A stretch of 64,000 bases of DNA from an uncultured delta proteobacterium (GTDB taxonomy: Bacteria > Myxococcota_A > Polyangia > Fen-1088): positions 192,001 through 256,000 of the forward strand of contig CAVTRY010000022.1 of assembly GCA_963737265.1 (NCBI GenBank). The letters run 5' to 3'. Positions 4,813 through 6,791 of the stretch are shown in pieces; position 1 is the stretch's first letter; each line of letters starts with the position of its first letter. The position numbers and the translations under genes are program-made. Below the pieces are notes generated by a model. It worked only from the letters and a program-made list of their open reading frames with translations, had not been told where the DNA came from and made no database searches.

Positions 4813-6319
4813 GTGCTTGCTCATGTGCTCTCCGCGACCGTCGTCGGCATCGAAGCCGCGCCCATCCATGTTGAAGTGGATGTGGCCAACGGGCTTCCCG
4901 GTTGTCACATCGTCGGCCTGCCCGATGCGGGCGTGAAAGAAGGGCGCGTTCGCATTCGTGGCGCGCTTGAAAACAGCGGCTTCAAGTTTCCGTTGCGCCG
5001 AATCACCGTGAACCTGGCGCCGGCGGATCTGCGCAAGGATGGCGCGGCCTTCGACGTTCCCATCGCCGTTGGAATCCTGGCGGCGGCGGGCGCGATTCCT
5101 CCCGAGGTCAACGAGAATTCCCTCTTCGTCGGCGAGTTGGCCCTCGACGGTCGCGTGCGCCCGGTGCGGGGCGTGCTGCCGATGGCGGCGTACGCACGGG
5201 CCCGGGCGATTTCGCGCCTGTTCGTGCCGCGCGAGAATGCGCCCGAGGCTACGGTGGTGGGCGGGCAGTGCTCGGTCTTTCCCATCGGACACTTGGGCGA
5301 GCTCGTGGATGCCCTACAAAGCCAGACCCCGCCGTCCGAGCCGGTGGCACCGACGGCCTTCCTTCCCTCGGCCAGCGCCGATCTGGCGGACATTCGCGGT
5401 CAGGAAGTCGCACGCCGGGCGCTCGAGATCGCGGCTTCTGGCGGCCACAACATCCTGTTCGTGGGCCCGCCTGGATCGGGCAAGACCATGCTGGCGCGCC
5501 GCCTGCCCGGAATTCTGCCCGCGCTGTCCTTCGACGAATCGCTGGAAACCACCATGGTGTATTCCGTCGCCGGGATGCTCGCCGGGCGATCGCTGGTCAC
5601 CGAGCGTCCTTTCCGCGCGCCCCACCACACGGTCAGCGTGGCCGGCCTGGCCGGTGGCGGACCGGCGGTGCGGCCGGGCGAGATCTCGCTGGCCCACAAC
5701 GGCGTGCTTTTTCTCGACGAGCTGCTGGAGTTTGCCCGACCGGTGCTCGAGGCACTTCGGCAGCCGCTCGAAGGAGCGCGAAATCGCGGTCGTGCGCGCT
5801 CGCCGCACCGTGGTTTTCCCGGCGGACTTCATGCTGGTGGCGGCGCTCAATCCCTGCCCGTGTGGACACCTTGGCAATCGTCTGCGCACCTGCACCTGCT
5901 CGCAGCTGGCCATCAGTCGCTACCGGGCCAAGTTGTCGGGTCCCTTGCTCGACCGCATCGACATGCACGTCGAGGTTCCCGCCCTCACCTATCGCGAGCT
6001 GATGGGAAAGGAGGCGGGAGAAGCCACCCCGGCGGTGCGGGCCCGCGTCGAGCAAACGCGGAGCCGGCAGCGCGACCGCGGGCCCCGTTCGAATGCGCGC
6101 CTGTCCACGCCCGACCTGTCACGCGTGGCCGCCCTGGATGGCGACGGACATCGCATCCTCGAACGCGCGGTGGAGCGTCTGGCCCTGTCCGCGCGAGCCA
6201 TCGAACGCGTGCGCCGCCTGGCGCGGACCATCGCGGACATGGAAGGCAGCGCGGACATGCGTGGCCCGCACGTGGCCGAAGCGCTGCAGTACCGGGTCTT
6301 GGATAAGGAGGCTAGTTAG
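4813..6319 (+). CDS. comM: YifB/ComM Mg-chelatase-like AAA ATPase, +1 frameshift at ~5773
   Basis: [56 protein letters not shown]; continues in another frame with [16 protein letters not shown]. Confidence 0.92.
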
Positions 6320-6791
6320 ATGTTCACCACAGAGTGCACAGAGGGCGCAGAGGACGGAGAGGAAGGGTTGAATCGGATCTCCCACGCGGTGATTGGTGCG
6401 GCGATCGAGGTCCATCGGCAGTTGGGCCCGGGGTTGTTGGAGTCGGCTTACGAGGCCTGTCTCGAGTTTGAGCTGACGGCTCAAGGTCACGGTGTTGACA
6501 AGCAGAAACCCCTTCCCGTCACGTACAAGGGCACTCCCATTGACTGCCTGTATCGGCTCGACTTGGTCGTTGGCGGGCTTGTGGTCGTTGAGATCAAAGC
6601 CGTCGAGAACCTCCTTCCCGTACACCAAGCCAAAATCCTCTCCTACCTCAAGCTCTCCGGCCTTCCCCTGGGCCTACTCATCAACTTTCATGGCGCGACC
6701 TTGAAGGAGGGAGTGCGCCGCTTCCAATCCCTTCAACCCTTTTCCGTGTCCTCTGCGTCCTCTGTGCCCTCTGTGGTGAAAAACAGCTAAC
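6315..6791. repeat. Imperfect inverted repeat enclosing the GxxExxY ORF, built from 9-nt CACAGAG-type units
   Basis: 6323-6355 vs reverse complement of 6748-6780: 31/33 identical; also 6363-6372 with 6732-6741 (10/10) and 6315-6324 with 6782-6791 (9/10). Confidence 0.9.
6320..6790 (+). CDS. GxxExxY protein (PD-(D/E)xK nuclease-like)
   Basis: [37 protein letters not shown]. Confidence 0.92.

Follow-up and report, generated by a model that had tools for sequence, protein, structure and literature searches.

The DNA analysed here is a 64,000-nucleotide stretch of contig CAVTRY010000022.1 from an uncultured delta proteobacterium (the window, meaning the whole 64-kb stretch; all bare coordinates count from its first letter). 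Between comM and recA it encodes a GxxExxY nuclease gene that is enclosed by a long inverted repeat. Hairpin-bounded GxxExxY cassettes of this kind form a widespread family that spans phyla and is apparently undescribed. The cassettes have a common anatomy, arms that pair specifically with their own partner, a sense location at operon junctions and gene-less hairpin relatives, and the copy in the window has persisted vertically under purifying selection. Our explanation of the whole, held tentatively and at a little less than an even chance, is that the cassette is a promoter-less unit of nuclease and hairpin that is read through by host operons and folds like an intervening sequence (IVS). 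As a partnership of nuclease and hairpin it would resemble the hairpins of repetitive extragenic palindromic (REP) sequences (REPINs) and their REP-associated tyrosine transposases (RAYTs).

The features of the cassette and its immediate neighbors are as follows.

4738..6319, plus strand: comM, the upstream operon gene, a YifB-type Mg-chelatase-like AAA ATPase (Pfam and NCBIfam matches on the C-terminal part).
6305..6311, plus strand: AAGGAGG, a Shine-Dalgarno-like motif found in the sequence, putatively serving the GxxExxY open reading frame (ORF).
6315..6319, plus strand: outer block GTTAG, which includes the comM stop TAG (6317-6319) and pairs with CTAAC at 6787-6791 (sequence and minimum free energy (MFE) structure).
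6320..6790, plus strand: GxxExxY/PDDEXK_3 nuclease ORF of 156 amino acids (aa) (profile matches, family alignment and AlphaFold2 (AF2) model).
6323..6372, plus strand: 5' arm, with a TTCACC terminus, CRCAGAG-type units of about 9 nt at 6323-6355 and an inner block at 6363-6372.
6732..6780, plus strand: 3' arm, with an inner block at 6732-6741 followed by 6748-6780, which ends in GGTGAA.
6787..6791, plus strand: outer block CTAAC, which includes the ORF stop TAA (6788-6790) (sequence, MFE structure and alignment with a second copy).
6793..7851, plus strand: recA (start 6805, stop 7849-7851) with its ribosome-binding site (RBS) AAGGAG at 6793-6798 (TIGR02012, 542 bits).

The main arms (6323-6355 and 6748-6780) are 33 nt long and complementary at 31 of 33 positions (94%), and the inner blocks are complementary at 10 of 10. 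Tandem 9-nt units occupy 6328-6336 and 6337-6345 of the left arm. Everything stated in a first-pass annotation made from the sequence is present at the coordinates given there. An outer block of 9/10 pairs proposed there was roughly right: GTTAG and CTAAC pair at 5 of 5 positions and are followed by one unpaired base and then the main stem (6321-6334 are paired in the MFE fold). When the two end zones are aligned locally, the score is 62, compared with a mean of 17.2 and a maximum of 23 for 30 shuffles. The cassette as a whole (6315-6791) is 477 nt long; its stem measures 33 bp or more, and 392 nt separate the two arms. We place its right end at 6787-6791 because similarity to the second copy stops there.

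The ORF starts at 6320, directly abutting the comM stop (TAG-ATG), and the AAGGAGG motif lies within the last comM codons, 8 nt upstream of this ATG. Both arms are translated, the 5' arm as an N-terminal tail of 15 residues and the 3' arm as a C-terminal tail of 12 residues. Immediately 3' of the stem is recA. Excision of 6320-6790 in silico leaves the comM TAG followed by C-AAAGGAG-ATGCCC-ATG, which contains the RBS and start of recA; thus, the clean comM-stop/RBS/recA junction that had been described can be read in the sequence. The first-pass annotation had also proposed folding the region. When 6300-6810 is folded as RNA, the predicted energy is -224.8 kcal/mol (z = -4.64; 0 of 100 shuffles are equally stable), and a single terminal stem is predicted to enclose the entire GxxExxY ORF, including its start codon.

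No promoter-like sites were found in a promoter scan of 6000-8300. The lone terminator-like site in this interval is on the minus strand at 6870-6883, inside recA, and is below the shuffle mean of 2.4. A search of 4500-9000 against Rfam at E ≤ 1 returned nothing relevant (two chance-level eukaryotic matches), and 12 related loci (148 kb) returned nothing at the gathering score.

The encoded protein matches PF13366 (PDDEXK_3) with 138.3 bits (cut-off 22) over profile positions 2-117 of 117, and TIGR04256 (GxxExxY) with 141.1 bits (cut-off 35). The ORF matches only these two families and no transposase was identified in the cassette, in agreement with the earlier description of a unit without a recognizable transposase. 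The window protein retains the G38-x-x-E41-x-x-Y44 motif plus the catalytic D81, E91 and K93, so the D...E-x-K motif is intact, as had been noted. In an alignment of 42 family members no variation occurs at G38, Y44, E91 or K93, and conservation reaches at least 90% at E41 and D81. The AF2 model has a mean predicted local distance difference test score (pLDDT) of 87.2 and a core in the order alpha-alpha-beta4-alpha-beta, as expected for a PD-(D/E)xK fold (helices 11-35 and 41-54, then strands, a helix at 100-113 and further strands). The arm-encoded tails are poorly modelled (pLDDT below 50 for residues 1-9; 10-residue block means of 55 and 74 from residue 141). The top Foldseek matches in the PDB are weak and all belong to PD-(D/E)xK proteins: Cas4 SSO0001, an archaeal splicing endonuclease, Hjc and lambda exonuclease. 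Single-sequence and profile searches of the PDB for a solved relative gave 0 matches.

The family is large, with at least 7,900 homologues at E ≤ 0.001. GxxExxY genes occur in many copies per genome, with dozens in some Planctomycetes and cyanobacteria. Matches occur in 7 of 72,556 plasmid records, mostly megaplasmids, and in 0 of 50,697 phage records; this is not the profile of typical plasmid or phage cargo. The family's entry in a 2012 survey of the PD-(D/E)xK superfamily gives the function as 'Unknown' and notes multiple transfers (PMC3424549). Papers in the searched full-text literature that name the GxxExxY family do not discuss repeats, and a search of the open full-text literature (subscription journals and database family notes being outside it) found no account of the GxxExxY-hairpin architecture.

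Related loci (L001-L049) were collected by a scan of genome contigs with peptide patterns taken from the window protein. Together with the window they make up 50 elements; their genes were mapped crudely, from ORF calls with Pfam support. Within zones of ±120 nt, the score of the terminal inverted repeat is above 30, the top value of any shuffle (30 shuffles per locus), in 33 of the 49 loci, which come from many phyla. With zones of 160 nt, this holds for 37 of 50 elements, and a stricter search without gaps (≥20 nt, ≥85%) recovers an enclosing repeat in 34 of 50. The 5' zones were also compared with all 50 of the 3' zones: the true partner arm is strictly the best in 25 of 50 cases and among the top three in 39, and the mean score is 47.6 for own pairs versus 20.5 for cross pairs. 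The expectation that other GxxExxY genes would have paired and covarying ends is therefore borne out. The argument for covariation is carried by this pair-specific arm test and not by counts of compensatory substitutions.

The arms share a recognizable composition. At least two CRCNRAG units (variants such as CACAGAG, CGCAGAG, CGCAAAG, CACCAAG and CACTAAG) are present in 25 of 34 arms; the background frequency is 0.075 per 50 nt. When each of the 34 arms is compared with itself, the best offset is 9 nt for 16 of them and 8 or 10 nt for another 11. Complementarity ends sharply at an outer TTCACC, ACC or AAC on one side and GGTGAA on the other. We did not identify target-site duplications in the flanks of 34 elements, and these flanks are unrelated to each other.

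In many loci (e.g., L010, L015, L018, L020, L022 and L026) the arms lie wholly outside the ORF. Thus, the arms are a feature of the nucleic acid, and the ORF of the window lineage has grown over them. This extension explains the protein tails of 120 close homologues, in which N-terminal FTTE is paired with C-terminal SVVK 30 times and with SVR 0 times, and VLTE with SVR 6 times and with SVVK 3 times. For annotation, it implies that the low-complexity N- and C-terminal tails of many GxxExxY proteins are translated repeat arms and no features of the protein.

A Pfam-validated gene is present on each side of the cassette in 39 loci. Both neighbors are co-oriented with the nuclease gene in 27 of these, the downstream gene is convergent in 6, the upstream gene is divergent in 4, and both neighbors are antisense in 2 (L039 and L044, each with a stop inside the nuclease frame). 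After orthologous sets were collapsed, there are 23 sense versus 2 antisense cases. The crude ORF map had indicated 11 loci with both neighbors antisense; based on Pfam, most of these calls are spurious opposite-strand ORFs in GC-rich DNA. The operons split by cassettes are diverse and include carA/carB (L028), prfB/lysS (L007), trpE/trpG (L032), nqr (L036), nuo (L031), NurA…HerA (L029 and L037), hsdS/hsdM (L025), PrkA/DUF444 (L046), MeaB/epimerase (L035), subunits of a 2-oxoacid oxidoreductase (L038), AAA_5/DUF5682 (L006 and L010) and helicase/methylase (L004 and L015).

As had been predicted, insertion points fall at gene junctions. Measured from the stop of the upstream gene, the 5' arm lies at a median distance of 5.5 nt (n = 24; range -26 to +369), and the next start codon is usually within about 35 nt past the 3' arm. 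Given the absence of a promoter-like site in the scanned interval, the abutting stop and start codons and the Shine-Dalgarno motif, the cassettes look promoter-less and expressed via operon read-through. About 10 of the 49 loci are truncated or stop-interrupted in the core (L008, L021, L023, L034, L039, L043, L044, L045, L048 and L049), a count that varies with start calling. In L048 (10034-11083) the first ~40 GxxExxY residues are in one frame with a molybdopterin oxidoreductase domain; this fusion looks like a truncated cassette joined to the downstream gene. In L005, L008 and L033, which represent two phyla, the gene converging on the cassette encodes pyruvate phosphate dikinase, possibly by coincidence.

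The closest of the 49 loci, L001 (a metagenome-assembled genome of the Myxococcales), has the same gene arrangement as the window.

L001 8460-9995: comM.
L001 9992-10471: GxxExxY gene, with a GTGA stop/start overlap with comM.
L001 10490-11530: recA, homologous to recA of the window.

A single, colinear blastn alignment connects window 4785-7811 with L001 8461-11472 (74.5% identity, 3068 columns), and blastn found no similarity between the window and L001 outside the comM-GxxExxY-recA block. Amino acid identities are 79% and 74% for the N- and C-terminal parts of ComM, 71% for the GxxExxY protein and 87% for RecA. The ratio of non-synonymous to synonymous substitution rates (dN/dS) is 0.17 for the nuclease core, where dS is 1.09, and 0.12-0.14 for comM. 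The right junction (…AAACAGCTAAC…AAAGGA.ATG.CCCATG) is homologous in the two genomes. The predicted L001 transcript also closes by a terminal stem (-228.6 kcal/mol, z = -3.15), and the arms have changed in step: the window has TTCACCACAGAG in both arms, and L001 has TTCTCACAGAG in both.

The colinear block and the purifying selection indicate that the cassette was inherited together with comM and recA over about one synonymous substitution per site. As judged from this comparison, it is an old, vertically inherited resident and no fresh insertion, and both the protein and the pairing appear to have been maintained over a dS of ~1. A recent insertion with findable empty sites, as had been supposed in the first-pass annotation, does not agree with a site that is filled and colinear in L001 and a nuclease under purifying selection; no empty comM-recA site was seen in the one related recA locus examined (L001). 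That annotation would have given up its reading of a selfish unit if the gene were vertically conserved here and other copies lacked paired ends. Vertical conservation is what L001 indicates, and the other copies clearly do have paired ends.

In the window, comM occupies two frames that switch at ~5771 (tblastx against comM of L001). The frameshift is due to one extra nucleotide near 5769, opposite a gap in the alignment with the intact, 511-aa comM of L001. The extra base reflects either a real pseudogene or an assembly error.

A second copy of the cassette was identified behind recA.

7895..8076, plus strand: decayed second copy, located directly behind the recA stop (tblastn matches at 7918-7959 and 7959-8069, alignment, and a weak residual inverted repeat).

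This copy has a 265-nt internal deletion (equivalent to 6410-6674) and a degraded left arm, and its right end is conserved up to …GGTGAAAAAC.GC.AAC. From the alignment, it is evidently a deletion derivative of a gene-bearing cassette. It has no counterpart in L001, which suggests that at least one further copy event occurred in the window lineage and was followed by decay. The interval that separates the decayed copy from the following gene (8258-9244, plus strand) contains a 17-nt inverted repeat (8092-8108 and 8214-8230; 94%; 105-nt loop) whose sequence is unrelated to the cassette arms.

Hairpins with the same type of arm and no gene, with loops of ~10-130 nt, were identified on the same contigs as gene-bearing copies (L003, L004, L006, L014, L015, L021, L030, L032, L035 and L041). 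Examples are as follows.

L003 6925-7016: gene-less hairpin.
L004 13213-13293: gene-less hairpin.
L006 12966-13072: gene-less hairpin.
L021 4312-4389: gene-less hairpin.
L032 8331-8481: gene-less hairpin.
L035 1268-1417: gene-less hairpin.

Clusters of hairpins occur in L005, L014, L015 and L041. Gene-less and gene-bearing copies have ~30-37 nt in common per arm. Their loops share nothing with the gene, which excludes an origin of gene-less hairpins by deletion as the general case. The gene in L005, L014 and L015 has complete hairpins on its flanks and is not itself enclosed by one. Decayed copy apart, we did not identify gene-less hairpins in the 64-kb window. A short hairpin of another, non-CRCNRAG type is present there (29514-29538 and 29555-29579; 25-nt arms, 22/25, 16-nt loop). 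Two further kinds of repeat array were encountered on the related contigs. In L041 (9867-10973) the GxxExxY gene is followed downstream by five or more tandem hairpins that have CACATAG-type arms, and in L004 (14001-14768) arrays of GGGAGTGGGGAATCGGGAGT-like repeats are present in both orientations inside or beside a large methylase ORF.

Long inverted repeats also enclose a different cargo. Genes of the four-helix-bundle family TIGR02436 (cut-off 24) were identified at 4035-4394 of L019 (99.8 bits) and at 503-898 of L016 (77.3 bits), within repeats that span 3964-4602 and 474-957, respectively, and that consist of tandem units. On both contigs these arms are unlike those of the GxxExxY cassette. 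TIGR02436/PF05635 (S23p, four-helix-bundle) is the family first known from ORFs of 23S rRNA IVSs (Leptospira, Coxiella and others). The likeness to an intervening sequence drawn in the first-pass annotation is thus apt, given this shared hairpin type and the similar layout of the Coxiella IVS. In addition, L041 encodes a RAYT (3736-4299, minus strand) with its own flanking inverted repeats (3603-4430).

Whether the arms act at the level of RNA or DNA can be approached from their mismatches. If the sense transcript were under selection, G·U pairs should be in excess. In 38 elements (1716 stem positions) 87% of positions are Watson-Crick pairs, and sense-strand G·U and A·C mismatches number 63 and 64. 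The 392-nt spacer rules out a cruciform in duplex DNA, so the arms of gene-bearing copies can pair only in RNA or in single-stranded DNA. Taken with the mismatch count, the motif and terminus conserved across phyla and the cargo-specific arms point to an element-borne factor that recognizes the sequence specifically. The nuclease is the obvious candidate. The suggestion that the repeats are the recognition ends of the nuclease would fit the conserved unit motif and the cargo-specific arms. An RNA stem is predicted to form whenever the operon is read and is long enough for RNase III, but this may be a consequence and not the selected function.

These observations suggest the following mode of action for the proposed nuclease-hairpin cassette. 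It would be transcribed by read-through from comM, and the nuclease would be translated by coupling to the comM stop, as the TAG-ATG abutment and the Shine-Dalgarno motif suggest. Once the 3' arm has been transcribed, the arms are predicted to pair and bury the start of the ORF. The long double-stranded stem would probably be cut by RNase III, as in the ORF-bearing IVSs of 23S rRNA, and the comM and recA cistrons would remain usable after it. The arms may be cognate sites of the encoded nuclease, which would maintain or spread the hairpins on single-stranded DNA; this possibility is suggested by the conservation of the arm sequence, by arms that differ with the cargo, by the hairpins without a gene and by the symmetry of the mismatches. 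The nuclease would thus serve hairpins as RAYTs serve REPINs, using a different enzyme fold.

Several points weigh against this explanation. Recognition of the arms by the nuclease and cutting by RNase III are both predictions. The parity of G·U and A·C gives no sign of selection at the RNA level, so the RNA step may be a by-product, and without a cruciform any DNA-level role of the gene-bearing copies requires single-stranded DNA. Depending on the method, 12-16 of the ~50 loci are without a terminal repeat. One of the search patterns is encoded by an arm and may favor repeat-bearing relatives. Since the arms are highly conserved, explicit compensatory substitutions are few (0-3 per pair in 8 close pairs). 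The case for long vertical residence comes from two genomes and one related recA locus, and the structural matches of the protein are weak (best E = 0.01, template modelling score ≤ 0.45).

It is unlikely that the cassette is a purely RNA-level, IVS-like element, in which the stem is selected only for excision by RNase III or another double-strand-specific RNase and the nuclease is an unrelated cargo that ignores the arms. Its size and layout (~470 nt, a stem of at least 33 bp and a sense ORF in the loop) do match ORF-bearing 23S rRNA IVSs as described in the IVS passages of PMC4990558. The cassettes are sense-oriented within operons, their spacer permits pairing only in a single strand, and processing of co-transcribed hairpins by RNase III is described for the Neisseria miniature insertion sequences (NEMIS), according to the passages on these elements in PMC2229807. 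However, a generic double-stranded RNA stem needs neither a unit motif nor a terminus conserved across phyla, and has no need for arms that differ between GxxExxY and TIGR02436 cargo on one contig. The lack of any G·U excess and of an Rfam family match also count against it. An improbable alternative is a homing-type nuclease gene that invades palindromic repeats already in place, so that gene-less hairpins are empty targets, which the nuclease cuts and into which repair from a filled copy installs the gene. This would account for the arm sequence shared by gene-less and gene-bearing hairpins with unrelated loops and for the lack of target-site duplications, and the predicted PD-(D/E)xK fold of the enzyme would suit it. 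Against this, repair-templated copying would have 30-50 bp of homology on each side, which is short, the same site was not observed in both a filled and an empty state among these loci, the comM-recA copy has been stable over a dS of ~1, and in L005, L014 and L015 the gene is flanked by, not enclosed in, hairpins.

We give little credence to domestication of the nuclease as a host protein of this lineage that acts with ComM and RecA in recombination or transformation, with the inverted repeat regulating translation or mRNA stability. The gene is kept between comM and recA in two genomes with a dN/dS close to that of comM, translational coupling is suggested by the abutting codons of the window and the GTGA overlap of L001, and the predicted stem buries the start codon. 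Relatives are nevertheless found in unrelated operons (carAB, trpEG, prfB-lysS, nqr, nuo and restriction-modification), which indicates that recA is not a characteristic neighbor of the family; moreover, the second copy behind recA was left to decay and about a fifth of the loci (~10/49) are interrupted or truncated. Finally, it is barely conceivable that no nucleic acid feature exists and that the mirrored ends are a by-product of an acidic N-terminal and a Ser/Val-rich C-terminal low-complexity tail, or of chance. The arms are translated in the window lineage and the tails do co-vary (FTTE/SVVK, VLTE/SVR), but arms outside the ORF in many loci, and gene-less hairpins with the same arms, contradict this idea. 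The period of the arms (8-10 nt) is not always a multiple of three, the tails are modelled at low confidence, and the end-zone score of the window far exceeds the shuffle maximum (62 vs 23).

The conserved hairpin wrapping, the sense placement in essential operons and the gene-less hairpins provide a testable handle on the function of GxxExxY proteins. If the nuclease recognizes the arms, it would represent a new enzyme class for the mobilization of repeats and a natural pair of a sequence- and structure-specific nuclease and its site. A broader proposal, which we regard as doubtful, is that this is a second cross-phylum replicator of the REPIN/RAYT kind, based on a PD-(D/E)xK enzyme and persisting vertically in operons over long times, and that ORF-bearing 23S rRNA IVSs are the members residing in rRNA of a general class of 'operon hairpin cassettes'. 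If so, the GxxExxY and four-helix-bundle cargo proteins would each recognize their own arms, and RNase III would disarm the transcripts. The finding links rRNA intervening sequences, REPIN-RAYT replicators and mRNA-processed hairpin repeats, which have hitherto been separate fields.

The cassette lacks the target-site duplications (34 elements) and the transposase expected of a miniature inverted-repeat transposable element or DDE-type transposon. Unlike an integron cassette, it has arms at both ends that pair with each other in place of a single attC, and its neighbors are ordinary operon genes. Free-standing homing endonuclease genes are likewise small nuclease genes that have no other mobility gene and leave host genes undisrupted; they differ in that here a long inverted repeat bounds the gene, there is no intron or intein (the Rfam search was blank) and no pair of empty and filled alleles was seen. 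NEMIS (Correia elements) and enterobacterial repetitive intergenic consensus (ERIC) sequences also have terminal inverted repeats that fold in operon transcripts and are located at gene junctions. For these, the sections of PMC2229807 that deal with them describe RNase III processing and effects on mRNA stability as proposed or shown. In contrast to the cassette, with its intact, selected gene, TTCACC/GGTGAA ends and no duplication, they are below 200 bp and non-coding, and usually have TA ends with target-site duplications.

The closest likenesses are to rRNA IVSs and to REPIN-RAYT systems. The Coxiella IVS measures 428 nt, its stem has 28 bp and its loop carries an ORF, and in ORF-bearing IVSs RNase III cuts mid-stem and removes the ribosome-binding region of the ORF (both from the IVS passages of PMC4990558). 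The cassette is of similar size, has a small sense ORF in its loop and no transposase of its own, and in both the window and L001 a long terminal stem encloses the insert, with the start region of the ORF in or beside it. It differs in its location between protein genes in an mRNA operon, with no rRNA match in Rfam, in its PD-(D/E)xK nuclease (in place of a four-helix bundle) and in its arms of tandem ~9-nt units with a conserved terminus. Moreover, RNase III cutting has been demonstrated for IVSs and is only predicted for the cassettes, which have no wobble signature. Shared with REPIN-RAYT systems are a nuclease gene flanked by copies of an inverted repeat that is also present without a gene in the same genome, and, in the parts of PMC3116915, PMC3337134 and bioRxiv 10.1101/2021.07.10.451892 that treat these features, long vertical persistence, a lack of target-site duplications and intergenic repeats. 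Here, however, the enzyme is a PD-(D/E)xK domain of ~120 aa and not an HUH/Y1 (IS200-like) tyrosine transposase, the cassette ends pair across the gene, and the gene is embedded in operons in the sense direction. RAYTs are typically single-copy, whereas GxxExxY genes are multi-copy. The cassette thus combines an IVS-like layout with repeat biology like that of REPINs and RAYTs, and is a member of neither group.

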